Shown here piece after piece: positions 269 to 24,372 of a DNA stretch of 32,000 nt. Position 1 is the stretch's first letter; each line of letters starts with the position of its first letter. The notes beneath the pieces are model-generated. The model was given only the letters and a program-made list of their open reading frames with translations, had not been told where the DNA came from and did not search any database. Source of the stretch: Geotalea uraniireducens Rf4 (GTDB lineage Bacteria; Desulfobacterota; Desulfuromonadia; Geobacterales; Geobacteraceae); contig NC_009483.1 of the NCBI RefSeq assembly GCF_000016745.1, forward strand, positions 4,410,001 through 4,442,000. The letters run 5' to 3'. The translations under genes and the position numbers were made by a program.

Positions 269-995
269 CGTTTCCCCAACATATGTGTTGCATTTCCGAA
301 CTGTATCCGCCATCTCCGGCATAGACGATGAGGGGCGGCAGTACCGATAAATCCCCCCTCCGCCCCTTGACCAACTCTACGAGAAACATTCCCGCCCCAG
401 AGATGTCGTTGCCGTGCACCATACGAAGCCGCAACGGGGCGAGCTTCAGCAGAGCTGCCTCGGCAAAAAGCTCCACCAATCGGGACGGATGATAGATGAA
501 GCAGATCCTCCCCCCCGGTTTGACCAGGTATTTCGCCGCCGTCAGGAAATCGGTGAGGCATGCGGTAGATTCGTGCCGTGCCTTGTCCCGTCCGGCCCTG
601 GGGCTCACCCGACCGGTACCGGCTCTGCGGTAGGGGGGATTCGAAACGACCAGGTCAAAGGATGATACGGGAAACACCCCCTTCAAGGAGGTGATATCCG
701 CGGCCAGAATGGAAATCCTGTCGCCGAGGCCGTTGATACTGACGTTGCGCAAGGCCAAATCCGCCAGCAATGCCTGGAATTCCACCCCGGTAACGGTGAC
801 ATCCTCCGCCTCCCTGGCCAGGATCAGGGGGATGATGCCGCAGCCGCTCCCGAGGTCAATGGCCCGTTCGCCGGTCCTGATGGCGGCAAAGTCGCACAAA
901 AGAAGCGGGTCGAGGGAGAATCGGTAGCCGTCCCGCGGCTGGCCAATGCTCAGCCGGTGTCTGCGCAACTCGTCGACGGTTTCTTCACCTTTCAC
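225..995 (-). CDS. Class I SAM-dependent N6-adenine methyltransferase, tRNA1(Val) m6A37 TrmN6/YfiC-like
   Basis: 'GYRFSLDPLLL' N-terminus, SAM motif 'IDLGSGCGIIPLILA', catalytic 'VVSNPPYRRAG' (NPPY). GTG start at 995-993 lies inside the heptamer array, with AAAGG 6 nt upstream. GTGA overlap with the upstream stop. Confidence 0.85.
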   Translation of the reverse strand: MKGEETVDELRRHRLSIGQPRDGYRFSLDPLLLCDFAAIRTGERAIDLGSGCGIIPLILAREAEDVTVTGVEFQALLADLALRNVSINGLGDRISILAADITSLKGVFPVSSFDLVVSNPPYRRAGTGRVSPRAGRDKARHESTACLTDFLTAAKYLVKPGGRICFIYHPSRLVELFAEAALLKLAPLRLRMVHGNDISGAGMFLVELVKGRRGDLSVLPPLIVYAGDGGYSSEMQHICWGNDAEQQEDSSCFAGL

Positions 996-1009
996 CTTTC
1001 ACCTTTCAC
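984..1009. repeat. Heptanucleotide tandem array (TTCACCT)x3.7; GTGAAAG on the coding strand
   Basis: Read directly: units at 984-990, 991-997 and 998-1004, partial unit 1005-1009. The array contains the TGA stop of the YfhO-like gene (994-992) and the SD and GTG start of the methyltransferase (995-993). Confidence 0.95.
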
Positions 1010-3421
1010 GCGCTTTCGCCACAGGTAGAGTTCCCTCCCCACCACCATGGCAAAAAATGCAAACGACGCCAGGGTCAGGTACTTGCCGACCTTGAACGGC
1101 AGCGGGTCAAAACGCATCTCCACCGCGTGGCTACCCGCTGTCAGATATATCCCCCGCAGAACGTGGTCCACCGGATAAATATCGGCGTCCTTGCCGTCTA
1201 CGGTAGCCCGCCACCCCTTGTAAAACTTCTCACCCACAACGAGGATGGCATTCTGCGCCGGATTTGCCGTGAAACTGATTTTGTCTCCCTCGTAATGGGT
1301 GACCGCGACGCCACCAACCGCCACTGGCGGCTGCATGTTCGGGGCCGGCATCGGGATGGGCGCCGGCGATTCCACGAGTGCAATGGCGCGGGGGTCAAAG
1401 GAGGGGTTCTGCAAAATGGCCAGGCCCTGCTGACGATCACTTACGGGAAGCACCGACGGCACAAGCCAGGCCTTCGGCAGGACCCGTCTGTTTTCCACAA
1501 CAACCTCGGAACCATCGGGCGACGTGAACACCGGCACGTACTTGTCACCAAGCTGCGCCTTTTCCTGCTGGTACTGGTTCGCATCGTAGACGAGGTATTT
1601 GACGTTGAGCATATCGGGCAGTGCGGAATTGAAGCTGAAGATGTCGAGGATCTCCTGCCACCGCCTTTGCTGCACCGGCATGGAGGTGAACATGACCGGA
1701 ATGCCGTTGGTGGCATACTGGTTAGGGTCGGCGCTGAGCGGGAGGACCCGGTATTCCTTCGGCTGGCGCGAAAGATACTCGATGACCGGCGTTTTTATCC
1801 CCTTTGACTTCTGCGGCACATCGACAAGAAACATGAACTTGGCGTTGACCCTCCCCACATCTGCCAGATAGAGGAACAGAAGAAGAAAGGGAAGCGCCTT
1901 CAGCATGCGCCGGCTCCTGGCGGAAACAACGAATACGGCGGCGTAAACAGCGGCCACGACAGCTGCAATGCCGGTCTCGGAGACGATATTGTTCCACCGC
2001 TGGGCAATGAGCTGCGGTCCCTGCTCGTAGCGGGTCGGCTGGGAAAGCATATCGTAGAATGAACCGATCCAGCGCTCCTTGCCAGCCAGCTCGATGCCGA
2101 CGAGCAGAAGGAGAAGGAGGGGAAGGGCAACGAGGGACAGGAGGTAGTACCTGAATTTCCTGTCAGCACGGCACTCCTTGTCCAGCAGTATGTCCACCCC
2201 CCGCGCGGCCAGGACACCGAGGCCGAAAACAGGGATGAACATCATCATCTTCGGCACCCGGAAACGGTTGATGCCGGGGAAATAATCGAAGAGAAACTGG
2301 TAGAAGATGCTGTATTTCCCCATGGAAAAAGTTATTCCCCCCGCCACCGCCAGGAGACCCAGCCAGGTGTACCTGTCGCGGCGGAAGATGAGCGGCAGCG
2401 GGAGCAGGAGCCAGGGGAGGAGCCCCATGTAGTCGGCGGTCTGGGTGAAGTGCATCCTCCCCCAGTAGTAGGAGGCGATGTTGCTCGGGTTCTCCCCACC
2501 TTCCTGTCGCGACAGGCCGAAAAAGCCGGGGATAACGAAGGTTGCCAGCTCCTCCGGCGGCAGGGACCAGGACATGGCCTCATCTATCTGCAAACCGCCT
2601 TTCCCCTGGTTCGCCCCGCTCTGCGCCCCCCGGTTCGTTTCCACCGACCAGCTGGCGAGGGGGAGGAGAGAGATGGCGACGGTTGTAAGGAAGAAACAGA
2701 GGGTGGCGAGGTTGAGCAGAAGCAATCGGCCTATGCCTTTGCCGCTCCTTTCACGTTCGGCAAAGATGATGCCGAGCGAGCGGAGGATGCCGTAAATGCC
2801 GATTGCGAGGCAGGTGTAGAATGCGATCTGCCAGTGATAGTTGAAAAACTGGAAGGCGAGGGTGAAAGCGGTTGCCAGGAAGAAAAAGAGGCGCCGCCCC
2901 TGGAACCCCTTCTCCAGAAAATAGAAGGCCAGCGGCGCATAGGAAATGGTGGCTATTTTCAGCACATGGCCGGCATTGATCAGCGAGGCGTTTTCCGTGG
3001 CGCAGGCAAAGATGAGCCCACCGAGAAAGGCGGCGGCCCTGCCGGCGCCGATGGCCCGGCAGTAGAGGAAAGTGCCCACGGCACCGAAAAAGAGATGGAA
3101 GACGATGAACCATGCCACGTTGGCAGGGGAAGGAATCAGCCAGTATATGAGCCGGTGGTAAAAGAGGAACTGCATGGATGCCCCACCACCCTCTGTCGTA
3201 TCGCCGCTGTTAAAGAAAATGGACCAGCCGGCGCTTGACAGGTCAATGCGGAATATGTCAAAAAACCGGATTGAATGGAGGTCCTTTACCGCCCAGTAAT
3301 GTTCATTGAGGATGTCAGGGGCGCGGATGATCTTGTCGGTGAAGAGGATGTGTGAAAAAGCTCCGATCAATACCGCAAGCAAGAGCGCCAGCGCCAGTAA
3401 ATCCTTCCTGCGTTCTGTCAT
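992..3421 (-). CDS. Large polytopic membrane protein, YfhO-like (putative GT-C glycosyltransferase)
   Basis: Long ORF. I place the start at ATG 3421-3419 (MTERRKDLLALALLLAVLIG...), because the 27 upstream codons of the track ORF run through two GC-rich intergenic hairpins. It has many hydrophobic helices followed by a soluble C-terminal region. The family call is from memory of YfhO-type architecture, not a search. Confidence 0.6.
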   Translation of the reverse strand: MTERRKDLLALALLLAVLIGAFSHILFTDKIIRAPDILNEHYWAVKDLHSIRFFDIFRIDLSSAGWSIFFNSGDTTEGGGASMQFLFYHRLIYWLIPSPANVAWFIVFHLFFGAVGTFLYCRAIGAGRAAAFLGGLIFACATENASLINAGHVLKIATISYAPLAFYFLEKGFQGRRLFFFLATAFTLAFQFFNYHWQIAFYTCLAIGIYGILRSLGIIFAERERSGKGIGRLLLLNLATLCFFLTTVAISLLPLASWSVETNRGAQSGANQGKGGLQIDEAMSWSLPPEELATFVIPGFFGLSRQEGGENPSNIASYYWGRMHFTQTADYMGLLPWLLLPLPLIFRRDRYTWLGLLAVAGGITFSMGKYSIFYQFLFDYFPGINRFRVPKMMMFIPVFGLGVLAARGVDILLDKECRADRKFRYYLLSLVALPLLLLLLVGIELAGKERWIGSFYDMLSQPTRYEQGPQLIAQRWNNIVSETGIAAVVAAVYAAVFVVSARSRRMLKALPFLLLFLYLADVGRVNAKFMFLVDVPQKSKGIKTPVIEYLSRQPKEYRVLPLSADPNQYATNGIPVMFTSMPVQQRRWQEILDIFSFNSALPDMLNVKYLVYDANQYQQEKAQLGDKYVPVFTSPDGSEVVVENRRVLPKAWLVPSVLPVSDRQQGLAILQNPSFDPRAIALVESPAPIPMPAPNMQPPVAVGGVAVTHYEGDKISFTANPAQNAILVVGEKFYKGWRATVDGKDADIYPVDHVLRGIYLTAGSHAVEMRFDPLPFKVGKYLTLASFAFFAMVVGRELYLWRKRVKGER

Positions 3422-3442: not shown

Positions 3443-3491
3443 GGGCAACCCTGTGTGGTTGCCCTGATTGGGCGGCCACATGGGGCCGCCC
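3443..3491. repeat. Twin GC-rich perfect hairpins (REP-like), in the 70-nt gap directly after a stop codon
   Basis: GGGCAACC-ctgtgt-GGTTGCCC (3443-3464) and GGGCGGCC-acatgg-GGCCGCCC (3470-3491). Both have 8-bp perfect stems and 6-nt loops. Neither strand has a U/T tract afterwards. Confidence 0.8.
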
Positions 3492-4607
3492 CTACTCTTC
3501 ACTCTTCACTGCCTTATAAATGTCCAGCGTCTCTCTGGCGGCCGCCTCCCAGGAAAAGGACTTCGCCCGGCGACGTCCCTGCTCCCGCATGGCCGTCGCC
3601 GTTTCTTCATTTTCTAGCACTCTGAGAAGCGCCGCGGCAACCTCCTCCACGGCCATGGGAGGGACGGCAATCCCCGCATCGCCCACCACCTCCGGCAGGG
3701 ATGTGGTGTTGGACGTTATCACAGGCACGCCGCACGCCATGGCTTCCAAGGGCGGCAGGCCGAACCCTTCGAAGAGCGACAGGTAGACGAAAACCCGTGC
3801 GCCGTCGTAAATAAAGGGGAGTTCCCCGTCGGGGACAAAACCGGTGAATACCACCTCGCCGTCGAGATTGAGCTCCCTGATCCGGCTGAACAGCCTGTCG
3901 TAAAGCCACCCCTTGCGACCGACGATGACGAGTTTCCCCGCAAATGCCCCCTTGCCTTTCAGCAGGCTGAACGCCTCGATGAGGGTGTCCAGGTTCTTTC
4001 GCGGCTGGATGGTCCCCACATAGAGGATGTAATCAGCCGGCAGCCCGTATTTCCCCCTGACGGCCGCGCCGGCAGCGGCATCACGGGACTCGATCATGGC
4101 AGGATCGAAACCGAGCATGATCGCCCTGATCTTTTCCGGCGCCACCCGGAAATCGGCCATGATCTCCTGCCTGGCGTGTTCCGAATCGGTGATGATGAAA
4201 GCGCTCCTCCTGGCGGCGATGGGTATCTGCAGCCGCCAGTAGATCCGCGCAGCCAGCTTCTCCGTTTCCGGGTGCTTGATGGGGATCAGGTCGTGCAGGG
4301 TGACCACCACCGGGCATGGTGCGAAATAGGGGATCGCGCTCTTCGGACAGTGGAGGATGTCCACCCGCTCCCTCTTGCAGGCAAGGGGGAGCAGCACATG
4401 CTCGCGCCAGAGCCGGGTGAGCGGGTTTTTGCCCGGCAGGACCATTTCCCGTGCCGCGGGGAATCTGCCCAAATGAACGGGATCGTTGTAGAAAACAATA
4501 TACTCGTTTTCGCGGTCAATGCGGAGCAGCGCTTCAAGCAGCCCCAATACATACGTCCGCGGCCCCCCTTGGGTGGAAATGGTTGAAGCATCAATGGCGA
4601 TACGCAC
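3492..4607 (-). CDS. GT4-family (GT-B) glycosyltransferase
   Basis: '[20 protein letters not shown]' EX7E-type motif. N-terminus '[11 protein letters not shown]...'. I choose GTG at 4607-4605, which has AGGAAA 6-7 nt upstream. The track ORF start at 4703 would overlap the upstream gene by 86 nt. Confidence 0.85.
3495..3510. repeat. Short heptanucleotide array (CTCTTCA)x2.3; AGTGAAG on the coding strand
   Basis: Units at 3495-3501 and 3502-3508, plus 'ct'. Encodes the last codons (...VKSEE) immediately before the TAG at 3494-3492. Confidence 0.7.
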
Positions 4608-6895: not shown

Positions 6896-7852
6896 CTAGC
6901 CATTGCGCCGCGTCCTGTCCACAAACCGGCGGCGAAAGATGGAGTAGAGCATACGCAGGTAGCGGATGGCCAGAAATAGCAGCACCGGCCGGCAGGGGCA
7001 ATAGTCGCGGTAGAGCTTGTAATTGGCCCGGAAATAAAAGGGGGAGCGGTAACTGGTCAGCATCTCTCTTACCCGCTCCCTGTTAAGCGCCTCGGTCCCG
7101 CTTGACACCGCAGTCCTGTTGTACACAACGCTTTTAGGCTCCGTAAGGAGGCGATAGCCGCGCCGCCGCGCCCTTAGTGAGAACTCCGCGTCCCCCTGGT
7201 ACTGGGGGCAGTTCTCCCGGTCGAAAAAACCGATCTCGGCGAACGCCGCCGCCGGAATCAGGGTGGAACTGCCGTGCAGCCAGTCGCAATCGCTGGTCCG
7301 GTCGAAATCAATCAGGTCGCGGCGGTTGTTGCGGTCCCTTATCTCCCCCACGTACCAGTTTATGACGCCGCCGAAGGAAAAGATGAAGTTCCGGTCCGAG
7401 TAGTCGTACATCTTCGAGGTAACGAGGCTTTTGGGGTGGCTCCGGGCGGTCTCCACCAGAGGCTCGATGAAGTCCGGCTCCACCACGTTGTCGTTATTTA
7501 TGGCCAGGATAAAGTCACCGCCCCGCCGCAAGGCCTCCCGGACACCGAGATTCGTGGCCCCCGACCACCAGAGGTTGCCGTCGCCCCTAACGATAGACAC
7601 TTGGGGAAAGCAGGCGGCGATGGCCTCCCTGGAGCCGTCGGTCGAGCCGTCATCTACGACGATGACCTCCAGATTCGGATACGTTGCGCACGCCATCGAT
7701 TCCAGAAAGGTAAGGGTTTCGTCCTTGCCGTTGTGGATCGGTACTACCGCTGCGACCTTGGGGAACCGAGGTTCGAGGAACGAGGTCCGAGGAACGAGGT
7801 ATTCACGCCGACACCAAACCCTTTGCCAGGTAGTCCTTGAACCCATCACCAT
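6896..7852 (-). CDS. GT2-family glycosyltransferase
   Basis: 'AAVVPIHNGKDETLTFLES...LEVIVVDDGSTDGS' GT-A motif. The only in-frame starts are ATG 7852, GTG 7849 and ATG 7846. ATG 7852 has AAGGA 6 nt upstream, supplied by the last ATAAAGG unit. The N-terminal ~30 residues are partly encoded by CCTCGNN heptamers. Confidence 0.8.
   Translation of the reverse strand: MVMGSRTTWQRVWCRREYLVPRTSFLEPRFPKVAAVVPIHNGKDETLTFLESMACATYPNLEVIVVDDGSTDGSREAIAACFPQVSIVRGDGNLWWSGATNLGVREALRRGGDFILAINNDNVVEPDFIEPLVETARSHPKSLVTSKMYDYSDRNFIFSFGGVINWYVGEIRDRNNRRDLIDFDRTSDCDWLHGSSTLIPAAAFAEIGFFDRENCPQYQGDAEFSLRARRRGYRLLTEPKSVVYNRTAVSSGTEALNRERVREMLTSYRSPFYFRANYKLYRDYCPCRPVLLFLAIRYLRMLYSIFRRRFVDRTRRNG
7767..7801. repeat. 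Degenerate heptanucleotide array (CGAGGNN)x5 inside the 5' end of the GT2 gene
   Basis: cgaggtt, cgaggaa, cgaggtc, cgaggaa, cgaggta read directly. 'cgaggaacgagg' occurs twice (7774-7785 and 7788-7799) and is the exact reverse complement of 7902-7913. Confidence 0.9.
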
Positions 7853-7859
7853 TCCGCGT

Positions 7860-7922
7860 CCTTTATCCTTTATCCTTTATCCTTTATCCTTTATCCTTTA
7901 TCCTCGTTCCTCGTGCCTTTAT
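7860..7922. repeat. Heptanucleotide tandem array (CCTTTAT)x6 + CCTCGTT + CCTCGTG + CCTTTAT; ATAAAGG on the coding strand
   Basis: Six perfect units at 7860-7901, then three more heptads to 7922. Contains the TAA stop of gmd (7893-7891) and the SD for the downstream GT2. Confidence 0.97.
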
Positions 7923-8913: not shown

Positions 8914-9786
8914 TCAGTCCTGCTTCCGGGCCACCAGCCAAATGGTGTCATAGAAGTTTTTCCCCGTCAGCTTCCATAAAACCCGCATCAGGCGATAATA
9001 TGCTGCATGCAGTAATCCTGCGGGGCCATGCTTGACGTAATAGGGATCCAGATCATTTTCCACCACGGCAAACCCGTTACGCTGAACCAGATCTGCGACA
9101 ACAGCAGGAGTAAAGTGAGAGAGATGAATCTCGGCGAGGGATCCGTCCAGCACTATCTTGGGGATGCCCAGAAGTCCATGGTATTTTATCTGCCTAAGAC
9201 CAAGCCGGTTCAGGGCATGGCGTACCCTGCGCCGTAATGACTCAAGTTCGTTTGGTACGGCGATGAGCAGCATACCGTTATCCCTCAGCAGTGCATGACA
9301 TTTCCTGACTACGTCTACCGGGTTATGAACATGTTCCAGCACGTGGAATAAGGTGACGGTGTCAAACCGCCGGTCGCCGAAATCTATGCTTTCCAGCGAA
9401 TCTCCGACAATTTCCACCCCGTACTTATCCTTCGCGATCTGGACAGCAGTAGTCGAGACCTCAGTGCCGCATACTTCCGTAAAATGAGAGCGTGCCATGG
9501 CAAGAAACTGCCCTATACCAGCACCAATATCAAGCAGTGATCCTGCAGCACCACGTCGCAGGAGTTTTTTCAGGCGACGGCGCCAGAGCCTTTGCCGATC
9601 TGCTTCCGAGTTCAGCCAGTCGTCGTACTTTGCCGGTCTGGAATAATATTCAGCAATCTCCCTGGATGTGGGACGCGGGTTATCAAAGACATAGCCGCAA
9701 GCCGGGCAACGAGTAATGTTACAGATAGCATCAATCGTGATCAGACGATCATTACTGCAGAGCAGGCAGCGCGTAAGAGTTTCCAA
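8914..9786 (-). CDS. Class I SAM-dependent methyltransferase with N-terminal CxxC...CxxC zinc-ribbon
   Basis: 'CLLCSN...CPACGY' followed by SAM motif 'LLDIGAGIGQFLA' and 'FDTVTLFHVLEHV'. TTG start at 9786 with AAGGA 6 nt upstream. Confidence 0.8.
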   Translation of the reverse strand: METLTRCLLCSNDRLITIDAICNITRCPACGYVFDNPRPTSREIAEYYSRPAKYDDWLNSEADRQRLWRRRLKKLLRRGAAGSLLDIGAGIGQFLAMARSHFTEVCGTEVSTTAVQIAKDKYGVEIVGDSLESIDFGDRRFDTVTLFHVLEHVHNPVDVVRKCHALLRDNGMLLIAVPNELESLRRRVRHALNRLGLRQIKYHGLLGIPKIVLDGSLAEIHLSHFTPAVVADLVQRNGFAVVENDLDPYYVKHGPAGLLHAAYYRLMRVLWKLTGKNFYDTIWLVARKQD

Positions 9787-9969
9787 TATATATCCTTATT
9801 TTAATATCTGAAATTGGCATCTGGCCAAACCGGTCAAGGGCAAATCTTTCATCCGTTGAAGTAAAGGCATGCCCCTCCTCTTTCGTCCCATGAGTCTATG
9901 GCGTAGACAGACCAGGACCGCAAGCAGAAATGTCGGAATAACAAGGCTTATTGCCACACTCCATTTTTT

Positions 9970-11214
9970 CTATACGTCATCGATTATCTCTTGATATAAA
10001 TCCGCATACCTTTTCGCGACCCCATCCATAGCAAACTCTTTTTCCACCTTTTCCCGCGACATGCGACACAACCGTTCTCTCCGGGTATCATCGGCAAGGA
10101 CCCAGTCGATACCACGGGCAAAGTCGTTGGTGTCAAAGGAATGGGCAAGGTAGCCGGTTTGTTCATGGACAACAATATCGAGCAGTCCGGTGGAGGCAAA
10201 CGCCACGACGGGAGTTCCGCACGCCATTGCCTCTGACGCAGTCTGGCCAAAACTCTCCTGCATCGACGGAACGCACATGACATCTGCTGCGGCGTAAGCC
10301 AGAGTCAGGCTTATATCGTCATGCAGTTTACCCAGGCAATGAACCGGCAACGGTATATCCGATAAATCGGCAGGCTGTGAAGCACCAAAAACCAGCAATT
10401 CCGCTTTCTCCGACCAACCGTCTGCAACAACCTGCAAAGCTGACTTAAGGTGGTGGAAACCTTTATTGTGGTCACCAACTATTGTTGCACCGAACAAGAT
10501 CAATTTTTTATCCTGCGGCAACCCCAGGAGTTCGCGGGCAACCCCTTTATTCACTTGTTTGTAACGACTCAAGTCCAATCCATTGGGGATTACTTCGACG
10601 CGTGCTTCCCGGAACAGGGAGCTTGCCTTGACACAATCGCCCATCCAATGACTTGGCGCAACTATGGTCAAGTTCAACCCCTGCCAGGATTTCGCTTTTA
10701 GATTCCATTCCCAGCGCGTTAAATCGTAGTCTCTTTTAGAGCCAAGTTGTGGACAGGCGCCGCAAGAGTTGCAATAGCGCATACACTTACCCGGGAGGTT
10801 ACATCCGCCTGTAAAAGCCCATGAATCGTGCATCGTCCACACTAAAGGCCGGTTAAATTTTCGTAGCGCCGTTACGGGCACAAATCCACAGCAGATCCAA
10901 TGCAGATGCACCAGATCAGGAGCGATCCCCTCAATGGAGCCATGAATATTGCTGGGCGCCCAGGATACCCCCCACGAACTCTGCTGACGGTTGGGGTAAA
11001 ACTTCAAGGGCAAGAGATCAAGGTAGGTGCACAGCTTGTTGATCGCTATTCCAGGTAATCCCTGTGAACCTGTTACGGTCGAATCCTGGCTCGTTTTGTA
11101 CTGGACAAGCATCCGCGAATTGACATCTATACTTTGCAACCCTTTATGCAGACGATACGCGGCACGTCCAGCGCCTCCTTCAATATCGTAAGTGCTGATG
11201 TGGGCAATGCGCAT
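9970..11214 (-). CDS. GT4-family glycosyltransferase
   Basis: 'MRIAHISTYDIEGGAGRAAYRLHKGL' N-terminus and 'ESFGQTASEAMACGTPVVAF' EX7E motif. Confidence 0.85.
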   Translation of the reverse strand: MRIAHISTYDIEGGAGRAAYRLHKGLQSIDVNSRMLVQYKTSQDSTVTGSQGLPGIAINKLCTYLDLLPLKFYPNRQQSSWGVSWAPSNIHGSIEGIAPDLVHLHWICCGFVPVTALRKFNRPLVWTMHDSWAFTGGCNLPGKCMRYCNSCGACPQLGSKRDYDLTRWEWNLKAKSWQGLNLTIVAPSHWMGDCVKASSLFREARVEVIPNGLDLSRYKQVNKGVARELLGLPQDKKLILFGATIVGDHNKGFHHLKSALQVVADGWSEKAELLVFGASQPADLSDIPLPVHCLGKLHDDISLTLAYAAADVMCVPSMQESFGQTASEAMACGTPVVAFASTGLLDIVVHEQTGYLAHSFDTNDFARGIDWVLADDTRRERLCRMSREKVEKEFAMDGVAKRYADLYQEIIDDV

Positions 11215-11225
11215 AGACTTTTATC

Positions 11226-12646: not shown

Positions 12647-13609
12647 TTATATCAGTTTAAACCATCGCCTCGTGGATCGTCTCTTAGGCTTAATAAATTT
12701 ATAAAATAATACCCACACTATATCTAATAAACTTATAGATACAGCTTTTTTTGTATAATTACTTAGCCAGAGAGATGGCAATAGAAATTTTCGCCCTTCA
12801 TAGTACTCACGTCTCCACTCAAAAGCATAAACTTTACCTGTTGTATTGACATTCAAGTACTGTTCTGCAAACCAGATTCTGGCCTGCCTATAGCATCTAT
12901 TAATATAATTCGATTTGTCACTTATGGTAATAGATCCTTCATGCTTTCTAAAGAAAGAAAGCGGTTTAGAAACAAATGCTATTTGCGCGTATTCTTTAGC
13001 AACGAGCAAATATATTAAAAGATCTGGACCTGCACCATGCTCATAAAAATTTTTGATTGTTGGAGATGGTATTTCTTCCACTAGATTTTTTCTCAGGTCA
13101 TCAGTCCTGAAAATGGCACATCCTGGAGAATATGGAACATTACCTGCAAACAATGACTCCTGGATAAAGTATGAAGAAGGCAATTTCCCCGTCTTCTCTG
13201 CTAATCCATACTGCTCTTGCCCTGTCCAAGGTTCTGTACCCATTATCGCTAGAGTAAAAACAAAACCTACTTCTTCATCACATAAAAAAGGAAGCGTTTT
13301 TTCTAAAAAAAGGGGATCAATAAGGTCATCTGAAAAAAGGATCTTACCAAAACAACCTCTTGCTTCATCAATGCAACGCTGCCAATTTCGGACAGGGCCG
13401 ATGTTGGTTTCATTACGAAAGATTCGAATGCGCGAGTCCTGTCGGGCGAACGTTTTACATACTTCCCAAGTCTTGTCTGTACTGGCATTGTCAACCACAA
13501 TGACTTCAATATCAGTTATGGTTTGTTCAATTGCAGACTGGATGCAAGGCCCAATAAAGGACTCTCTATTATAAACTGGTATCAGTATGCTAACTCTTGG
13601 GATAATCAT
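12647..13609 (-). CDS. GT2-family glycosyltransferase (AT-rich, probably foreign)
   Basis: 'VSILIPVYNRESFIGPCIQSAIEQT...IEVIVVDNASTDKT'. Hand-counted lines give 28-38% G+C. Confidence 0.88.
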   Translation of the reverse strand: MIIPRVSILIPVYNRESFIGPCIQSAIEQTITDIEVIVVDNASTDKTWEVCKTFARQDSRIRIFRNETNIGPVRNWQRCIDEARGCFGKILFSDDLIDPLFLEKTLPFLCDEEVGFVFTLAIMGTEPWTGQEQYGLAEKTGKLPSSYFIQESLFAGNVPYSPGCAIFRTDDLRKNLVEEIPSPTIKNFYEHGAGPDLLIYLLVAKEYAQIAFVSKPLSFFRKHEGSITISDKSNYINRCYRQARIWFAEQYLNVNTTGKVYAFEWRREYYEGRKFLLPSLWLSNYTKKAVSISLLDIVWVLFYKFIKPKRRSTRRWFKLI

Positions 13610-13689
13610 TTCAATAACAACAGTCCTTTTCTGCAGATGACGGAGTTAATATTTTTGCTGCAAGTGAAGTTTGTCTTATTATTAGTTCC

Positions 13690-15027
13690 TTATTCCACGG
13701 CACTCAAGGCTACCCTTTTTCTACGCAGAACACACCAAGGAAGTACCCAGGCTGCCGTCAGCGAGAACGAGGCGATAAGGGCATAAACTATTCCTGCCAC
13801 TCCGAACCTGGGAGCTAGGGATACCTGGAGGAGTACAGTAATGACCGCCTGGGCCGGGATATAGATGACAAAGGGACGCAGGTAGCTCATGCTCTGCAGA
13901 ACCATGGCAAAGGTATCGCTCCAGATGCGTATTACGTTATAGCCACCCATAATGACAATAAACAGTACCGGAACCATAACCGCCTTACCCGGCGCAAGGA
14001 GGTGAATCAACTCTGGCATAAAGAAAGCAAGCAGCAGGGTCGCTCCTGAAAGGAGCAGCACTCCCATGACAATATATTGCTTCACGTAGCCCATCACCAC
14101 ATGCCAGTCATTCCGGGCCACCGCTTCAGCACAAACCGGCCATACAGCAATCAGAAGGGCTGTGTAAATAAAATAAATCAGTCCGAATATTTTAGATGTC
14201 AGGTTGTAGACGACAATTTCATTGGCCGGTAAAAAACGCGCCATCACCAAATAGTCCACCTGGAGCACCCCTGCCGCCATGATAGCGGAAAGCCAGAATT
14301 TAAGCCCCCGTTTCATCAATGGCCACAATATCTCCCGCTTGACAGAACTGCTCCGCTGCAGACTTCCTGTAAACTGCAGCAGGAATGCCACAGCAGGAAG
14401 CATCCCTGCGGGCCCAAATGCGGCGACAAGGCTCCAATACAACTTGTGTTCAAGTGGGCTCCGCGCCACAAAAACAATCGCAGCAAAACTGATAAGAGAC
14501 GCTACAGCCGGCACTACGTTTGCCAAATATCCTTTTTGCTCGGCGTACCATATCCGATAGGCAATCCCGCCGAAACAGGTCGCTATCGATATCACTCCTG
14601 TGATGAAAAAATGTCGTGCCTTTTCAGCATCGTTTAGGAACGGAAACCCCTTTAAGATGAGCGGCGCCAAGAAGGGACTGGCGAAGAACAGGAATAAAAT
14701 GCTTAGTAACATGAGAAAGATGGCGATGACCCCCGCCATCGCAATGAAATCCTCGTAGGGTTGCTTCCCTGCCCGCCGTTCGGAAATATGGTTCTGCAGG
14801 CTCGTGCCAACCCCCATGTCTGCCAAGAGGTACCATCCCTGTAAGCCCCCCAACACTGCATAGAGGGCATACTGTTCCGTACCAAGACCTTGAATCAATA
14901 TACGAATACTAAACAGCCCCACCACCGCCGTTACCAGACGGCTGATCCATGCACTAGCCGCAACCAGCAGATGGGAAGGTATGCGGTTCAAGATTCCCGG
15001 TTTAGCATTGACGGTCAAAGATGTCAC
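13690..15027 (-). CDS. wzx: Wzx-type oligosaccharide flippase (MOP superfamily)
   Basis: Polytopic throughout. The N-terminus '[30 protein letters not shown]' is typical of polysaccharide-biosynthesis/Wzx proteins. GTG start at 15027 overlaps the tyv stop; TTG at 15018 is an alternative. Confidence 0.8.
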
Positions 15028-18281: not shown

Positions 18282-18325
18282 ACTATACCTCTAACTTAAC
18301 CCTTAAATATCAACATTATTAACGG

Positions 18326-19411
18326 CTATACCGTCAGGTATTCCTCCATCTGCTTGAGACAGGCCTCCCGCAGGTCCCGTTTTTCCCGATAGGCCTCCGT
18401 CCACTCAACGATGCTGTCCAGCGACCGCTCAAGGCCCCATCGCTGCCGCCACCCCAGTTCAGCCCTTGCCTTGGAGCAGTCGAGCTTCAGGAAGTGGGCC
18501 TCGTGGGGATGGTCGCCCATGTCCAGCTCATATGCTGCGCCTTCACCCCACCGGGCGCAGAGCCTCTCCACAATCCACTCAACAGGCCTGGCGTCTTCGT
18601 CATGGGGGCCGAAGTTCCACCCGGAAGCAAAAGCAGGACCTTCCTCATAGAGCCGCTGCGCCAGGAGCAGGTAGCCGGAAAGGGGTTCAAGGACATGCTG
18701 CCAGGGGCGGATGGCGTGCGGATTCCTGATCAGAATCTTTTCGCCACTCAACAGCGACTTGACGCAGTCTGGAATGAGCCGGTCAACTGCCCAGTCGCCG
18801 CCGCCGATGACATTGCCGGCCCGGGCAGTTGCCACGGCTGCGCCGTGGCGTTGAGTGGCTGAACTGTTGAGTTGTTGATTGACAAAATACGACGAGCGAT
18901 AGGCGGCTGTCACCAACTCCGAACACCCCTTGCTGTTGGAGTAGGGGTCATACCCCCCCATCGGCTCGTTTTCCCGGTACCCCCAGATCCATTCACGGTT
19001 TTCGTAGCACTTGTCGGTGGTCACGTTGACCACCGCCTTTACGCGGGGGCAGCTGCGCACCGCTTCCAGCAGGTGAACGGTCCCCATGACGTTGACGGCG
19101 TAGGTCTCCACCGGGATTTTGTACGAGTCCCGCACAAGAGGTTGGGCCGCCATGTGGATGACGATATCGGGAGAGGCCTTGACCATCTCCGACTTCAGCC
19201 GGTCACCGTCCCGCACATCGGCAATGGTCGAGGCAACAAGATCGTTGATGCCGCACAACTCAAACAGGCTCGGCTCCGTCGGCGGCGCCAGCGCATAGCC
19301 AGTCACCTCTGCCCCGAGGGAATGGAGCCACAAAGAAAGCCACGAACCCTTGAAACCTGTATGGCCGGTGAGGAAGATTTTTTTGCCTTTCCAGAACTCC
19401 ATATCATTCAT
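18326..19411 (-). CDS. rfbG: CDP-glucose 4,6-dehydratase
   Basis: 'FWKGKKIFLTGHTGFKGSWLSLWL', 'DPYSNSKGCSELV'. Start placed at ATG 19411 (MNDMEFW...). The track's longer N-terminus runs through the intergenic heptamer relic. Confidence 0.9.
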   Translation of the reverse strand: MNDMEFWKGKKIFLTGHTGFKGSWLSLWLHSLGAEVTGYALAPPTEPSLFELCGINDLVASTIADVRDGDRLKSEMVKASPDIVIHMAAQPLVRDSYKIPVETYAVNVMGTVHLLEAVRSCPRVKAVVNVTTDKCYENREWIWGYRENEPMGGYDPYSNSKGCSELVTAAYRSSYFVNQQLNSSATQRHGAAVATARAGNVIGGGDWAVDRLIPDCVKSLLSGEKILIRNPHAIRPWQHVLEPLSGYLLLAQRLYEEGPAFASGWNFGPHDEDARPVEWIVERLCARWGEGAAYELDMGDHPHEAHFLKLDCSKARAELGWRQRWGLERSLDSIVEWTEAYREKRDLREACLKQMEEYLTV

Positions 19412-19454
19412 ACATTTTCCGTTTTTGCCATTGAAGATATAAGGCCTTTCACCA

Positions 19455-19482
19455 CCGACCGCCGACTGCCGCCCCCCGACCG
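19455..19482. repeat. Degenerate 4-unit relic of the CCGACCG heptamer family
   Basis: ccgaccg, ccgactg, ccgcccc, ccgaccg. Starts 6 nt downstream of the ddhA stop (19491-19489). Same orientation as the right arm of the 24220-24372 array. Confidence 0.6.
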
Positions 19483-19488: not shown

Positions 19489-20259
19489 CTACCAGATTTT
19501 CCACGGCGCTCGGCCGCTGGTCCAAAGCTCCTCCAGGTGCATCTTGTCCCGTAGCGTATCCATCGGCTGCCAGAACCCCGAGTGCTTATAGGCCGCCAGC
19601 TGGCTGTCGCGCGACAATCCCTCGAGCGGTTCCTTTTCGAAGACCGTTGCGTCTCCCGCAATACGATCGAGCACCTGCGGCTCAAGGACAAAGAAACCGC
19701 CGTTGATCCATGAGCCGTCACCAGCCGGCTTTTCCTGGAATGCCGTCACATTGTTCGCGCCGTCAATGCTCAAGGCGCCGAAGCGGCCGGACGGCTGGGT
19801 GGAGGTAACGGTCGCCAGCTTGCCGTGGCGTTTGTGAAAATCAATCAGCTTGGAAATATCAACGTCCGCAACCCCATCGCCGTAGGTCAGCATGAAGGTT
19901 TCATCTGCCACATAGGGGGCAATGCGTTTTACCCTGCCGCCGGTCATCGACTCCATGCCGGTATCCACGAGGGTCACCCGCCACGGTTCGGCCTTTTTCT
20001 GGTGGACCTCCATGGAATTAGTGCGCATATCGAAGGTAACGTCGCTCATGTGGAGAAAATAGTTGGAAAAGTACTCTTTGATCACGTACCCCTTGAAGCC
20101 CAGGCAGATGACGAAGTCGTTGAAACCGTAGTGGGAGTAGATCTTCATTATATGCCAGAGGATCGGCTTGCCGCCTATCTCCACCATCGGCTTCGGCCTT
20201 ATTACCGTCTCTTCGCTGAGTCTGGTTCCCAGACCGCCTGCCAGAATGACTACTTTCAT
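19489..20259 (-). CDS. rfbF: Glucose-1-phosphate cytidylyltransferase
   Basis: 'MKVVILAGGLGTRLSEETVIRPKPMVEIGGKPILWHIMK'. ATG at 20259 with GGAG 9 nt upstream. Confidence 0.92.
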   Translation of the reverse strand: MKVVILAGGLGTRLSEETVIRPKPMVEIGGKPILWHIMKIYSHYGFNDFVICLGFKGYVIKEYFSNYFLHMSDVTFDMRTNSMEVHQKKAEPWRVTLVDTGMESMTGGRVKRIAPYVADETFMLTYGDGVADVDISKLIDFHKRHGKLATVTSTQPSGRFGALSIDGANNVTAFQEKPAGDGSWINGGFFVLEPQVLDRIAGDATVFEKEPLEGLSRDSQLAAYKHSGFWQPMDTLRDKMHLEELWTSGRAPWKIW

Positions 20260-20944: not shown

Positions 20945-20967
20945 CATCAACCTGGAAAGATTAGCAA
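20939..20967 (-). promoter_or_regulatory. Candidate sigma70-type promoter TTGCTA-N17-TATCGT for the regulator/ddh operon
   Basis: On the minus strand, -35 TTGCTA (20967-20962), a 17-nt spacer, then -10 TATCGT (20944-20939). The -10 overlaps one palindrome arm. A start site here would give a nearly leaderless GTG. Confidence 0.3.
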
Positions 20968-20975
20968 TAAAAAAT

Positions 20976-21060
20976 CTGGGAACTGGGAACTGGGAACTGG
21001 GAACTGGGAAGTCCATTACCGATCCCCGATCCCGGATCCCAGTTCACCGGTTTTCTTCAG
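20976..21060. repeat. Composite element copy 1: (CTGGGAA)x5 + conserved 31-nt G/C-run core with (CCGATCC-like)x3
   Basis: Five perfect units at 20976-21010. Core 'taccgatccccgatcccggatcccagttcac' is at 21017-21047. The TAA stop of the DUF2304 gene (21018-21016) lies between array and core. On the coding strand the array is followed by ATTTTTTATT. Confidence 0.95.
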
Positions 21061-21396: not shown

Positions 21397-21399
21397 TTC

Positions 21400-22113
21400 C
21401 TACCTCCGATACAATTGACGGTTCCTGAGCAGGGTAACGACTATGGAAAGACACATCTTGAACATGTAATAAAGCGGTTTGAAACCGCTGTGCATGGTCT
21501 TCCCCGCAGCATTGGCAAACATGCGCACCGGAATTTCCCTGATCCTGAATCCGGCCAGGTTCAGGGTTATCAGCATATCCGCATCGGGATAATCGCAGGG
21601 AAAGACGTCGGTGGTGAAAAACCGCATGACGTCGCGGTTAAAGGCCTGGTAGCCGGAAGTGGGGTCGGATATGGTCCGGCCGATCAGGGAGGAGACCAGT
21701 TTGCGAAAGAAGAGTATCCCCAGCCGGCGGGAAAAGGATGGACGGTAGCTTTCCACCCCCAGAAAACGCGAACCGACGACAAAATCCGTGTCTCCGGCTA
21801 CAACCGGCCTCATCAGCTCGGGGATGAATGCCGGGTCATGCTGGCCGTCGCCGTCGATCTGCACCAGGAAGTCGTAACCCTTGGCGTAAGCGAACTTGTA
21901 AGCGGTCTGGATCGTCACGCCATATCCCATGTTGAACGAGTGTGAAACGACGATGGCTCCTGCCGCCGCGGCTTCCCGGGCAGTGCTGTCTTTGGAGCCG
22001 TCATTCACCACCAGGATATCGAAATCGGGGACAACGCGCCGCACGTTTTCGATGACACGGGCAATCACCCCCCCCTCGTTGTAGGCAGGTATCACGACAA
22101 TGGTTTTGGACAT
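21400..22113 (-). CDS. GT2 polyprenyl-phosphate glycosyltransferase (GtrB/DPM1/ArnC-like)
   Basis: 'IVVIPAYNEGGVIARVIENV...ILVVNDGSKDST', 'LVQIDGDGQHDP' (DxD). Short soluble-plus-C-terminal-tail format typical of lipid-carrier sugar synthases. Confidence 0.8.
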   Translation of the reverse strand: MSKTIVVIPAYNEGGVIARVIENVRRVVPDFDILVVNDGSKDSTAREAAAAGAIVVSHSFNMGYGVTIQTAYKFAYAKGYDFLVQIDGDGQHDPAFIPELMRPVVAGDTDFVVGSRFLGVESYRPSFSRRLGILFFRKLVSSLIGRTISDPTSGYQAFNRDVMRFFTTDVFPCDYPDADMLITLNLAGFRIREIPVRMFANAAGKTMHSGFKPLYYMFKMCLSIVVTLLRNRQLYRR

Positions 22114-22127
22114 TCAGAAACCTTTTT

Positions 22128-24116
22128 TCAATCCGGGAACTGGGAACTGGGAACTGGGTTTTTACCGATCCCCGACCCCAGATCCCCGTTCACTGACTTC
22201 AGCAGCTTTGCGGCAAACTCCGGATTCAGCGACTTAAGGATTACATATTGGTCGGTGGCCTTCTGCGTCTCCTTGCTCGCCGCATAGGCCAAGCCCAGAT
22301 TATAGTGGGCCTCGCTCAGGCGTGGATTCATGGCAATGGATTTTTCATAATTATCTATGGAGTCAGCAAGCTGTCCCATGGAATCATAGGCCAATCCAAG
22401 GTTGTTATAGCCGAGGGCAAACCATTCGTTCTGGTATGCGGCGTTCATGCCCATGCTCGCATCAAACAACTCATAGGTCGGGCTGTAACGGCCGGCATAG
22501 GTCCCGAGCTGGCCAAGCGCTATGCCGATATTGTTCCACGCATCGGGATGCCCCGGAGAAATGCCTATGGAGCGGATCAACGCAGGTATCGCCTTTTTCG
22601 GCTGATGCTTCTTCAAATAGGCATAGGCCAGGTTGTTCCACGGCCGCGACTTGTCGGGGGACTTTGCCGCCACATCCTGCCAGAGGGTCGTCTCGTCCTG
22701 CCAGACCATGTTGCGCCTGAAGGTTGCCGTTGCAAGGGAGACGGCGACCAGCAGCAGGGCGATGAATGCTATTCCGGCAATCTGTGGCCTCCGCACAGCC
22801 AATCGGTCCACCGCCAGCACCACGGCCGTTGACAGCGCCATGAAAAATCCGATCGACGGCAGGTAGACCCTGTGCTCGAAGATAACGTCAACGATCGGGA
22901 TGACGCTCGACTCAACCGCCAGGGCGATGAAAAACCAGAAAATGCCGAAGGCTGTGAGGCGGTAAACGGCGGTCGGCGGTCGGTGGTCGGTGGTCGATGG
23001 TTGATGGTAAAAGGCGGTCGGAGGTCGGTGGTCGGTGGTCGATGGTGAACTATCCAACGTAGAACGTAGAACGTAGAACGTAGAACGATAAACAAAATAA
23101 ATCCCCACGCCGAAGATCGCCAGCAGCAGCAGGAAAGAGAGGAACACAGGGGCATTGAAAAAGGAGTGGGCCACCGGAAAGTCATGGTCAAGGTTCTGCC
23201 CTACCGGGAAAAACAGCAGCCTGAGATAGGTGACGATCACCCGGAACTGGGTGAAGAGATAGTCAAGCCGTGGCATCTCCGTCTGGACCATGGTTGCCGC
23301 CTCCAGCCTCCCCAGGAGCTGTCCCGCCCCGGAGGAGCCGAGCATGCTCAAAGGGATGATGGCCAGGGTGAGGAGAAATGCACCGATGAACATGACCCGC
23401 TTGGCGATGCTCCCCCTGAAAAACATGAACTCGTAAAGAATCACCGTGAACGGCAGGGTAAAGGCGATCTCCTTGGTTTTCATGGCAAGGACCGCCGTTA
23501 AGAGCGACAGGAGATAGCAGGCTGCGGCAAACAGCTTTCCCCGCCGGCCGCCCCCCCCCTGCTCCAACCGCGCCATGATGTAGAGGACGAGGGAACCAAT
23601 GTAGAACATGGCTGCAAGTGAAGTGAAGCGCTGGACAATGTAGGTTACCGCCTGGGTCTGGAGCGGATGGGCAACGAAGAGGAGCGCCGCAAACAGCGCA
23701 ATCGGTCCGCTGAAGCGCCCCCTCTCCCCCTCTTCCGCCGGAGCGAGCAACGGGGTCCTGAAAGTGAGGGTCACCAGGGTATAGACAAGGAGGGCGGTCG
23801 CAAGATGGATCGCCAGATTGACCAGATGATAGCCGAAGACATCGAGACCGTTCAGCCGGTAATTGACGGCAAAGGTGAAGTCCCCCACCGCCCGGCTCCC
23901 CTTGACGGCGAAGGGGTCGGCGAACGGATCCACGTTTCTCACGACCGGGTTGCCGAGGATGTTGGCAATATCGTCGAAGTTGAAGGTGGCGGTGAAGGTG
24001 TTGGAGTAGGCCAGAAGCCCAAGGGAGATAACGAGGAGAAGATGAAGCACGGTCGCAAACCGCGTCCGCCGGTAAACAAAGTCACTGAATCTGCTTGTCA
24101 TGGATAGAGAGTTCAC
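22128..24116 (-). CDS. PMT/TMTC-like GT-C membrane glycosyltransferase with C-terminal TPR domain
   Basis: 'FNFDDIANILGNPVV' acidic loop after the first helix and 'EHRVYLPSIGF' match PMT_2/TMTC-type enzymes. C-terminal TPR-like repeats include 'WNNLAYAYLKKHQPKKAIPALIRSI', 'AWNNIGIALGQLG', 'YNNLGLAYDSMGQLADSIDNYEKSIAMNP' and 'AHYNLGLAYAAS'. GTG start at 24116 has AGGA about 7 nt upstream. Confidence 0.75.
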   Translation of the reverse strand: MNSLSMTSRFSDFVYRRTRFATVLHLLLVISLGLLAYSNTFTATFNFDDIANILGNPVVRNVDPFADPFAVKGSRAVGDFTFAVNYRLNGLDVFGYHLVNLAIHLATALLVYTLVTLTFRTPLLAPAEEGERGRFSGPIALFAALLFVAHPLQTQAVTYIVQRFTSLAAMFYIGSLVLYIMARLEQGGGGRRGKLFAAACYLLSLLTAVLAMKTKEIAFTLPFTVILYEFMFFRGSIAKRVMFIGAFLLTLAIIPLSMLGSSGAGQLLGRLEAATMVQTEMPRLDYLFTQFRVIVTYLRLLFFPVGQNLDHDFPVAHSFFNAPVFLSFLLLLAIFGVGIYFVYRSTFYVLRSTLDSSPSTTDHRPPTAFYHQPSTTDHRPPTAVYRLTAFGIFWFFIALAVESSVIPIVDVIFEHRVYLPSIGFFMALSTAVVLAVDRLAVRRPQIAGIAFIALLLVAVSLATATFRRNMVWQDETTLWQDVAAKSPDKSRPWNNLAYAYLKKHQPKKAIPALIRSIGISPGHPDAWNNIGIALGQLGTYAGRYSPTYELFDASMGMNAAYQNEWFALGYNNLGLAYDSMGQLADSIDNYEKSIAMNPRLSEAHYNLGLAYAASKETQKATDQYVILKSLNPEFAAKLLKSVNGDLGSGIGKNPVPSSQFPD
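22134..22202. repeat. Composite element copy 2: (CTGGGAA)x3.6 + conserved 31-nt core
   Basis: Units at 22134-22158. Core 'taccgatccccgaccccagatccccgttcac' at 22163-22193 matches copy 1 at 28 of 31 positions by hand alignment. The flanking 'cttcag' is also shared. Here the GT-C/TPR ORF reads through the whole element. Confidence 0.9.
22968..23089. repeat. Intragenic heptanucleotide arrays: two blocks of GGCGGTC/GGTGGTC/GATGGTN units, then (GAACGTA)x4-5
   Basis: Block 1 at 22968-23009 (6 units), 'aaa', block 2 at 23013-23047 (5 units), 'aactatc', then caacgta + gaacgta x3 + gaacgat (23055-23089). Encodes '...STFYVLRSTLDSSPSTTDHRPPTAFYHQPSTTDHRPPTAVY...'. Confidence 0.95.
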
Positions 24117-24219
24117 CCGGAAATCCTGTCAGAATTGAAGGTAATGATCATTTGAAAATAGCAAAAAACTATTTTTGCCACGAATAACACGAAAAGCATC
24201 TAATGTATAGGCCCTTTTT

Positions 24220-24372
24220 GGCGGTCGGCGGTCGGCGGTCGGCGGTCGGAAGTCAACCCATAGGACTACAGTCGGCGGTCGGCGGTCGGAAGTCAACCCA
24301 TCGACCATCGACCATCGACCATCGACCATCGACCACCGACCACCGACCACCGACCACCGACCGCCGACCGCC
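24220..24372. repeat. 153-nt composite heptamer palindrome: (GGCGGTC)x4 ... (GGCGGTC)x2 ... (TCGACCA)x5 (CCGACCA)x3 (CCGACCG)x2
   Basis: Units mapped by hand. 'ggcggtcggcggtcggaagtcaaccca' is directly repeated (24234-24260 and 24274-24300). 24357-24372 is the exact reverse complement of 'ggcggtcggcggtcgg', which occurs in several registers in the left arm. Starts 2 nt after the GT2 stop. Confidence 0.97.

Follow-up and report, generated by a model that had tools for sequence, protein, structure and literature searches.

A stretch of 32,000 nucleotides from the chromosome of Geotalea uraniireducens Rf4 (NC_009483.1, positions 4,410,001 to 4,442,000; the whole stretch is referred to as the window and is numbered from its first letter) carries eight loci of tandem 7-nt repeats. 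They belong to the STRR / GGGNATC class of heptanucleotide long simple-sequence repeats. The arrays are found at the 3' ends of co-directional genes and in their spacers, with one further case in a tolerant loop of a membrane protein, and in related genomes they stay at the same junctions while unit and copy number turn over fast. In mRNA sense four of the loci begin with a purine-rich array, which a spacer separates from a pyrimidine-rich array complementary to it, and form imperfect hairpins of down to -120 kcal/mol. The explanation favoured here, to which we assign a probability of roughly 0.65, is that the arrays are slippage-driven repeats that persist at gene 3' ends and that their inverted pairs act as RNA hairpins.

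Period-7 arrays were called in the window with Tandem Repeats Finder (TRF), and the chance level was taken from 30 dinucleotide-preserving shuffles. Period 7 accounts for 16 of the 25 TRF rows, and periods 14 and 21 for 3 further rows; the expectation from the shuffles is 0.67 period-7 rows per shuffle, so that the arrays are non-random, as had been proposed in a preliminary description of this DNA. TRF finds arrays at each of the eight places that the description had listed. The period-7 tracts total 505 bases and contain more than 12 different heptamer units within the 32 kb, at a density of 0.25 loci per kb.

Every gene of the window lies on the minus strand. The open reading frame (ORF) map and Pfam together agree with the glycan cluster described earlier, which includes YfhO-like, GT4, GT2 and GT9 genes, two genes of the GDP-mannose-dehydratase family, and further Pfam-supported genes for a DegT aminotransferase, a nucleotidyl (NTP) transferase, a MarR-type regulator, a DUF2304 protein and a 662-aa TPR membrane protein. 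At four loci the stop codon lies within the array (992-994, 3492-3494, 7891-7893 and 21016-21018) and at three it is 5-6 nt away (19489-91, 22128-30 and 24375-77). Seven of the eight loci thus span a stop or sit no more than 6 nt from one, with the G-rich arms on the coding strand. The eighth (22967-23087) is within the ORF of the TPR protein, which is open all the way through, again in agreement with the preliminary description. The ORFs run into the arrays up to the first in-frame stop, and therefore stops are found within arrays and the protein tails differ between strains.

The claim that several arrays are palindromes made of 7-mers is borne out at four loci by fold and duplex energies, namely 24220-24369 (hairpin A), 22135-22188 (hairpin C), 20976-21047 (within hairpin D) and 7762-7911 (between gmd and GT2), but not at 984, 3494, 19451 or 22967-23087. 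Hairpin A consists of three TRF arrays and begins 6 nt past the GT2 stop at 24375-77. Its 5' arm is a gradient of units, (GGCGGTC)x2 (GGTGGTC)x4 (GATGGTC)x4.7, of the kind that point mutation followed by slipped-strand spreading would give, and its 3' arms are formed by (GACCGCC)x2 and (GACCGCC)x4 with GTTGACTTCC ahead of each. The sense strand folds at -120.3 kcal/mol (z -9.75) and the antisense strand at -102.2, with equal z-scores on both strands. Hairpin C, with TRF arrays at 22135-22158 and 22165-22188, has a 5' arm of (GGGGATC)x3.4 and a 3' arm of (CCCAGTT)x3.4 in the last 20 codons of the TPR-protein ORF (stop 22128-30), where the arrays encode the protein tail GDLGSGIGKNPVPSSQFPD. Its 79-nt region folds at -31.6 kcal/mol in sense (z -3.3) and -28.0 in antisense, and its 68-nt core at -29.4 against -25.4.

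Hairpin D (20966-21047; TRF arrays 20976-21010 and 21019-21040) has a 5' arm of (GGGATCN)x3 at 21047-21019, the DUF2304 stop (21016-18) in its loop, and a 3' arm of (TTCCCAG)x5 at 21010-20976. The stem is imperfect, with about 25 pairs and a loop of 11 nt, and AUUUUUUAUU comes straight after the 3' arm. The U-rich tail ATTTT.TATTGCTAATCTTT after D is kept in L124-L127, four of the related loci introduced below; A and C are without a U-run. To judge from the stem and tail, D looks like a terminator closing the TPR-GT2-DUF2304 block. The fourth pair of arms lies between a GDP-mannose dehydratase gene (gmd) and the next GT2 gene. The purine-rich 5' arm (7859-7911), CGAGGAA CGAGGAT (AAGGATA)x6.6, spans the dehydratase stop at 7891-7893, and the pyrimidine-rich 3' arm (7762-7800; ACCTCGT/TCCTCGG), at the start of the GT2 gene and 58 nt downstream in mRNA sense, is complementary to the CGAGGAA units. 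The arm-arm duplex has an energy of -31.4 kcal/mol against -18.8 +/- 3.7 in shuffles, of which 1 in 100 was equally good; the entire region from 7762 to 7911 folds no better than shuffles.

Fixed junctions and unit turnover in related genomes

Five related loci were retrieved through homologues of the TPR protein, and identity to the window was measured over the nucleotides of the TPR N-terminal segment. It is 97.5% for L208, 93% for L124, 91% for L125, 85% for L126 and 66% for L127 (G. toluenoxydans). All five also contain many dispersed arrays with several unit types, and in L208 five array loci are found in the 11-kb glycan part as opposed to none in 10 kb of other genes, a hint that arrays may be enriched at glycan loci. 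Arrays recur at four places, corresponding to the junction between the GT2 stop and the TPR start (A), the TPR loop (B), the TPR 3' end (C) and the DUF2304 3' end (D).

The units at these places differ widely. At A the window has GGYGGTC...GACCGCC and L124 has GGCAGTC...GACTGCC; L125, L126 and L127 have no arrays there. B contains CGTTCTA + ACCRCCG in the window, CGTTCTA + ACAACTC in L124, CGAGGAA + TTCCTCG in L125 and L126, and GTTCGAA + TCACCAA in L127, and it forms a hypervariable low-complexity insert in all 12 of the 12 aligned TPR homologues. At C and D the window and L126 share GGGGATC + CCCAGTT, and L124 and L125 share AGTGAGA + TCACGAT-type units; L127 has GGTGATT + GAACTTC at C and no arrays at D. 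The C-terminal tails of the TPR proteins are array-encoded and differ between strains in the protein alignment.

Copy number is equally mobile, and the unit counts that the preliminary description had proposed to compare between strains are not invariant. Between L208 and the window, whose flanks are about 97% identical, the 5' arm of A goes from 2.3 to 11 units and the 3' arms go from 1+2 to 2+4. Similarly, an 83-nt array is present in L126 where L125, which is 94% identical, has 11 nt. Despite wholly different units, the two arms are complementary in each genome: the GGYGGTC/GACCGCC pair of the window corresponds to GGCAGTC/GACTGCC in L124, and the GGGGATC/CCCAGTT pair of the window and L126 to AGTGAGA/TCACGAT in L124 and L125. 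These alignments point to compensatory change at the level of whole arrays, which would keep the arms complementary.

The sense strand folds better than the antisense strand in 11 of 12 array hairpins at A, C and D from five genomes, which is suggestive evidence, and suggestive only, for selection at the RNA level. G-U wobble pairing was considered as proof of selection on RNA and rejected, since G is frequent in the sense strand and A has the same z-score whichever strand is folded.

According to the favoured explanation the hairpins would act on the transcript at cistron borders, in a manner that may be likened to REP elements and to the stems of rRNA intervening sequences. Candidate roles are those of terminators (D with its U-tract), of RNase III-type processing sites and of structures protecting 3' ends. 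A stem built from tandem units would remain paired after any whole-unit slip, and in this way stems could persist through turnover, and the four unpaired arrays may be half-sites or neutral by-products. The same architecture, polarity and close approach to stop codons are found around PF05635 genes in 80 metagenomic loci (see below), which is counted in favour of this explanation. Of the three roles offered in the preliminary description, namely phase-variable junctions, RNA structure or processing signals, and recombination sites, the second fits best.

Several observations weigh against a role as RNA hairpins. D is not called by the consensus terminator scanner, and terminator-like sites in the window are not above chance; the consensus terminator and promoter scans gave counts at or below chance, with none at arrays. 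Four of the eight loci are without a local partner or a significant fold, and D of the window folds better on the antisense strand (-43.7 kcal/mol, z -4.7) than on the sense strand (-35.7, z -2.8). Where the sense strand does fold better, its high G content could be the reason, given the equal z-scores of A, and complementary arms could arise mechanically via template switching and not through selection. L127 is without arrays at D, which are hence dispensable there.

Known repeat classes and competing explanations

The repeat class to which the window arrays belong is already described in cyanobacteria, Xanthomonas and Geobacter and is functionally unexplained; the finding in the window is a rediscovery, and its own value is modest. 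The suggestion of an undescribed repeat system must be withdrawn in view of the earlier descriptions (PMC4679880, PMC2700814, PMC4692102), and the bias towards stop codons, presented as part of such a system, is a published property of GGGNATC repeats (PMC4692102). That the host is non-cyanobacterial was correct. What the comparisons add is the turnover of units with arms kept complementary, the fixed polarity with respect to transcription, the start of arrays at the stop codon and the breakpoints within arrays.

Among long simple repeats with units of 5-11 nt, heptanucleotide repeats are reported to lead in abundance in most genomes, with a scattered distribution over phyla, and slippage of the polymerase has been put forward as their cause (Mrazek 2007, as cited by MacGregor 2015, PMC4679880). 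The window shares the 7-nt units with that survey, which deals neither with hairpin architecture nor with orthologous sites. G. metallireducens, of the same bacterial family, has 49 (GGACCGG)x4 elements within and between genes and 15 (MTYCTGA)x5 sites regarded as putative regulatory elements (Aklujkar 2009, PMC2700814). These Gmet_H4## and class-3 elements, recorded as multicopy sequences, resemble the window arrays in that heptanucleotides are repeated four or five times in tandem at dozens of sites, both between and within genes. They differ in their own units, GGACCGG and MTYCTGA, and in that each family was regarded as a single conserved element and its copies as sites for regulators; the turnover of units in the window speaks against sequence-specific recognition. 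The 0.25 loci per kb of the window is far above the published 64 sites in 4 Mb of G. metallireducens (PMC2700814), a second hint of enrichment at glycan loci.

A close likeness is to the GGGNATC-type repeats of Xanthomonas and Nostoc, which are intergenic, mostly between co-directional ORFs, with mean distances of 28 nt to the ORF upstream and 160 nt to the one downstream, and lie on the coding strand within 50 bp of a stop codon or overlapping it (Rehm 2015, PMC4692102). They include 70-75 convergent (inverted) pairs per genome, and occur between the same genes in two species with extensive variation in length and sequence (PMC4692102). GGGGATC itself is found at C and D of the window, together with the co-directional genes, the proximity to stops and the inverted pairs, and the same junctions are occupied in L124-L127 and L208 with variable length and sequence. 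The window differs in its host, which belongs to the Desulfuromonadota, in that most of its units lack G-tracts, and in that its partner arms are complementary via G-U wobble (CCCAGTT) and are not the same unit inverted.

STRR are heptamer tandem arrays dispersed in the non-coding DNA of heterocystous cyanobacteria. The comparison with STRR made in the preliminary description is apt, as CCCAGTT is one base from the CCCCAGT of STRR1, although the host of the window is non-cyanobacterial and its unit types are far more numerous. A cross-phylum scan for (CTGGGAA)x3, with one genome per species, gave 8-kb stretches (L004-L123) in which Nostoc and Anabaena loci have a GGGGATT...CCCCAGT hairpin layout like that of the window. 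The motif was found in at least 120 stretches from Acidobacteriota, Dehalococcoidia, Nostoc/Anabaena/Phormidium, Bacteroidales, Gemmatimonadota, Chlorobiaceae and others, where period 7 is by far the commonest period (422 rows) and many units occur per 8-kb locus. The repeats are therefore not specific to glycan loci, nor are they a new system. In the stretches listed, 17% of bare (TTCCCAG)x3 cores are near stops against about 7% with random placement, an excess that is weak because the cores form part of longer composite arrays.

Two side observations concern the units themselves. In many phyla (TTCCCAG)n arrays lie within gradients of one-base variants (TTCTCAG, TTGCCAG, TTTCCAG, TCCCCAG, CTCCCAG) which mostly keep CAG, and the TAACTGA repeat of Beggiatoaceae reads TTATCAG on the other strand, with the same pattern.

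REP/BIME elements of enterobacteria are imperfect palindromes at gene 3' ends within operons, which stabilise the upstream mRNA or attenuate transcription. The analogy with the window hairpins is one of function only, as REPs have a conserved sequence in common and are not organised in tandem.

The most serious alternative to RNA hairpins, albeit one that we consider less likely, is a neutral origin, in which genomes prone to 7-nt slippage accumulate functionless arrays wherever these are tolerated, as in spacers, protein tails and loops. It agrees with the proposal of polymerase slippage attributed to Mrazek in PMC4679880 and accounts for the very large diversity of units, for their rapid gain, loss and turnover, and for the missing arrays at D in L127 and at A in L125 and L126; the probably recent low-GC island at 9-14.5 kb is also without arrays. 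It is less easily reconciled with arrays that persist at the same four junctions from 97% down to ~60-78% identity and begin ~10 nt or less from stops, not anywhere in spacers. Polarity with respect to transcription is constant, with the purine-rich arm first, and arm complementarity survives complete replacement of the units. A neutral origin leaves the polarity, the compensating arms and the start at stops unexplained.

Phase-variable junctions were also proposed in the preliminary description; slippage by 7 nt would then shift frame or spacing and switch surface-glycan genes on and off, as in contingency loci. As a general explanation this is improbable. Period 7 is not divisible by 3, and copy number varies between close strains. 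E. coli NeuO is a precedent, being a phase-variable glycan-modifying enzyme with a heptanucleotide repeat. Tract B (22967-23087, minus strand), which comprises three TRF arrays, (CGTTCTA)x4.6 followed by ~11 units of (GACCRCC), encodes the hypervariable loop of the TPR/GT-C-like membrane protein, and in homologues down to 59% identity arrays persist there with pure runs of 4-6 copies. At the other seven of the eight loci, however, the arrays are at or after stops, where a slip alters just a dispensable tail or the spacer, so that the frameshift logic carries over to B alone. Even at B, 12 of the 12 aligned TPR homologues are in frame. A frameshift 'off' allele was sought in the truncated TPR relative in L208, and the candidate was rejected; this sole truncated allele (P0241, 356 aa) is a rearrangement and not a frameshift. 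The genes associated with the Xanthomonas and Nostoc repeats are from all functional classes, and the authors judged phase variation unlikely (PMC4692102). Phase variation is plausible for tract B only.

About as improbable is the proposal that the arrays are attC-like recombination sites at cassette borders, which would allow exchange, insertion or inversion of gene modules. Part of the evidence is favourable. L208 ceases to match the window precisely where B begins (window 23097; L208 11020-11110). There a local heptamer hairpin cuts the TPR ORF short at 356 aa, and unrelated genes come next, a convergent trpA, an MCP gene and a cytochrome gene; the breakpoint of the rearrangement thus falls inside an array. 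The C and D arrays of the window and the tails they encode match L126 (96% in the C window), with L124 matching at 64-74% across C and D, while the flanks of C and D are closest to L124 (93-95%), so that array types do not follow the flank phylogeny (22061-22160, 21016-21060). The end of synteny at B and the mismatch between arrays and flanks at C and D therefore indicate that arrays are breakpoints or short conversion patches. As a separate observation, the identity of L126 to the window climbs from ~80% upstream of C to ~90% downstream, a mosaic pattern. Within each genome C and D bracket GT2-DUF2304 with the same units at both, and a 558-nt unit of two arrays and a PF05635 gene in L126 takes the place of a 94-nt junction in L125.

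Long inverted repeats also exist between loci. The 5' arm of A (24298-24369) and B (22967-23046), 1.2 kb apart, form a predicted duplex of -137.6 kcal/mol against -61.3 +/- 6.1 in shuffles, and in L127 the arrays of B (11034-11123) and C (11890-12037), 0.77 kb apart, reach -126.1 against -43.4 +/- 6.7. Such arrays could pair in RNA or could serve as inverted repeats for DNA inversion; in either case half of the TPR gene lies between the two arrays. Integron attC sites are likewise imperfect palindromes bordering cassettes, yet the conserved core and inverse core and the extrahelical-base architecture of attC are lacking in the window, and no end motif is shared across the arms of the more than 12 unrelated units. 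No recombinase domain was found by Pfam among the 28 window ORFs, in accordance with the earlier statement that no integrase is visible. Most arrays are at junctions inside conserved synteny. The variable border upstream of the TPR gene is array-free in L125 and L126. Furthermore, homologous or illegitimate recombination of the ordinary kind would be expected to leave breakpoints at repeats, and a dedicated system is unneeded. What stands of the proposal is thus some evidence for arrays as recombination breakpoints, and not the attC-like site.

The papers on G. metallireducens and Beggiatoaceae suggest that such repeats bind a global regulator or an RNA-binding protein (IHF/HU-type, CsrA, S1, Csp) in a sequence-specific way, which is highly improbable here. 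The purine-rich units often contain GGA or AGG and the arrays are at translation junctions, but more than 12 unrelated units in 32 kb and full unit replacement at orthologous sites are incompatible with one sequence-specific partner, and only a reader of periodicity or structure would fit. Least probable of all are G-quadruplexes, which have been proposed for GGGNATC repeats and which cannot apply to most of the units here. In C and D the 5' arms do have GGGGATC/GGGATCC units of the published type and D of L126 holds more than 10 G-tracts, but C and D of the window each have three G3+ tracts plus a GG where four are needed, most window units (GTGAAAG, AGGATAA, CGTTCTA, GGTGGTC, AGTGAAG) are without G-tracts, and the G-rich arms are already paired with complementary arms.

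PF05635 genes between inverted arrays

The most interesting product of the follow-up is the association of heptamer arrays with genes of the PF05635/TIGR02436 'four helix bundle' family, the Avd-like 23S-rRNA intervening-sequence protein S23p. In L126 a 117-aa gene of this family is bounded precisely by a purine-rich array of 109 nt on one side and a complementary array of 83 nt on the other (1472-2022), with an array-array duplex of -102.6 kcal/mol against -36.3 +/- 5.3 in shuffles; this is the 558-nt unit that is absent from the plain 94-nt junction at the orthologous L125 site. All three PF05635 genes among the at least 120 cross-phylum stretches, as far as these were listed, are bracketed by inverted heptamer arrays (L028 1027-1525, L077 65-578 and L106 5131-5600).

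An unbiased test set was formed by 80 metagenomic loci (L128-L207) chosen solely for encoding a PF05635 protein. Period-7 arrays are found no more than 150 nt from the gene on both sides in 39 of the 80, on one side in 22 and on neither side in 19. The period-7 coverage is 17.7% in the 150-nt flanks compared with 1.24% beyond 200 nt, a 14-fold difference. Inverted heptamer arrays are thus associated with PF05635 genes. In gene sense the upstream arrays are purine-rich (mean 0.66) and the downstream arrays pyrimidine-rich (mean 0.38), and the flank duplexes average -74.0 kcal/mol against -57.7 for shuffles. Of 41 usable loci, 31 have an ORF of 100 codons or more on the same strand whose stop falls inside the 5' array or no more than 60 nt upstream of it; in 19 of those 31 the stop is 10 nt or less from the array start. 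No report of the association was found in the literature searched. By this flanking, heptamer repeats, unexplained since 1990, are tied to a very abundant orphan protein family.

In the window itself tblastn gave no match to a PF05635 gene, and none of the best 120 of more than 7,900 PF05635 homologue matches was named G. uraniireducens. The unit family of 7762-7911 is that of the arrays bracketing the PF05635 gene in L126. The 58-nt spacer between 7762-7800 and 7859-7911 was considered as a remnant of such a gene and rejected, as there are just 9-nt matches and these are in the wrong order. In the protein database most PF05635 homologues come from very short contigs, of 500-2000 nt, as would fit with assemblies that break at flanking repeats.

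The 23S rRNA intervening sequence (IVS) of Coxiella has strain-variable (GACAGAT)x2-3 repeats upstream of the S23p ORF; they lie where the IVS begins and where the 5' cut of RNase III falls (PMC4990558). An IVS with an S23p/PF05635 ORF is a long stem with the ORF in its loop (PMC4990558), and the long stem is shared by A, C and D of the window, which fold significantly; the window hairpins differ in carrying no ORF and in lying in mRNA spacers instead of rRNA. It is possible, and we put it forward tentatively and without favouring it, that heptamer-array hairpins are cross-phylum IVS-like RNA elements located directly after stops, with a purine-rich array first, a pyrimidine-rich complement last, and in between a loop that is short or carries PF05635/TIGR02436, so that arrays and protein form one system. 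The PF05635 protein might then recognise, process or propagate the array stems, and the window loci would be ORF-less versions, by analogy with MITEs and transposons. If the link between arrays and PF05635 is functional, it leads to concrete experiments on RNase III and on binding of the protein to arrays.

Unpaired arrays and other features of the window

The four arrays that are not part of a local hairpin are 984-1009, 3494-3510, 19451-19482 and tract B, each without a local complementary partner and without a significant local fold. The first is a direct array on the minus strand, (TTCACCT)x3.7 or (GTGAAAG)x3.7 in mRNA sense, which spans the stop of the YfhO-like gene (992-994) and the first GTG of the next ORF, and whose unit resembles a Shine-Dalgarno sequence (AAGGTG). 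Arrays of (AAAGGTG/GGTGAAA)n just ahead of or across the start of a downstream gene are seen at 984-1009 in the window and, with a GT2 gene downstream, at 5972-5993 in L125, 608-629 in L126 and 6339-6413 in L208; each unit provides a Shine-Dalgarno-like AAGGTG and a GTG codon, and L208 has 10.7 copies.

The second is a short direct array on the minus strand, (AGTGAAG)x2.4 in mRNA sense, touching the GT4 stop at 3492-3494. Directly downstream is a non-heptamer GC-rich hairpin, GGGGCGGCC-CCATGT-GGCCGCCC in mRNA sense (~3466-3490). It lies within the nominal 5' end of the YfhO-like ORF, and the true start of that gene is probably further downstream. The third, at 19451-19482 on the minus strand, is a degenerate direct array of the GGTCGGC family with 72% matches, beginning 6 nt past the NTP-transferase stop at 19489-19491.

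The remaining junctions had been described as tight. This does not apply to five spacers of 44-203 nt, 29647-29765, 18282-18325, 13610-13689, 12444-12646 and 9787-9969, which are array-free and of ordinary AT-rich sequence. Three of them, all long, belong to a low-GC island (~9000-14500), which was probably acquired more recently. The island has 42-52% GC against 56-60% elsewhere and contains GT4, GT2, methyltransferase and MatE-like genes. An Rfam scan of the window gave zero matches at gathering score.

Logan short-read contigs from this strain match the window at 100% identity and terminate within arrays at 7875, 20981 and 23085, as expected where a perfect array exceeds the word length of the assembler. 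In practical terms the arrays break short-read assemblies and give variable protein tails in annotations. Finally, short repeats of period 8 were found at 7157-7172, 18850-18878 and 23718-23733, three rows against 0.43 expected.

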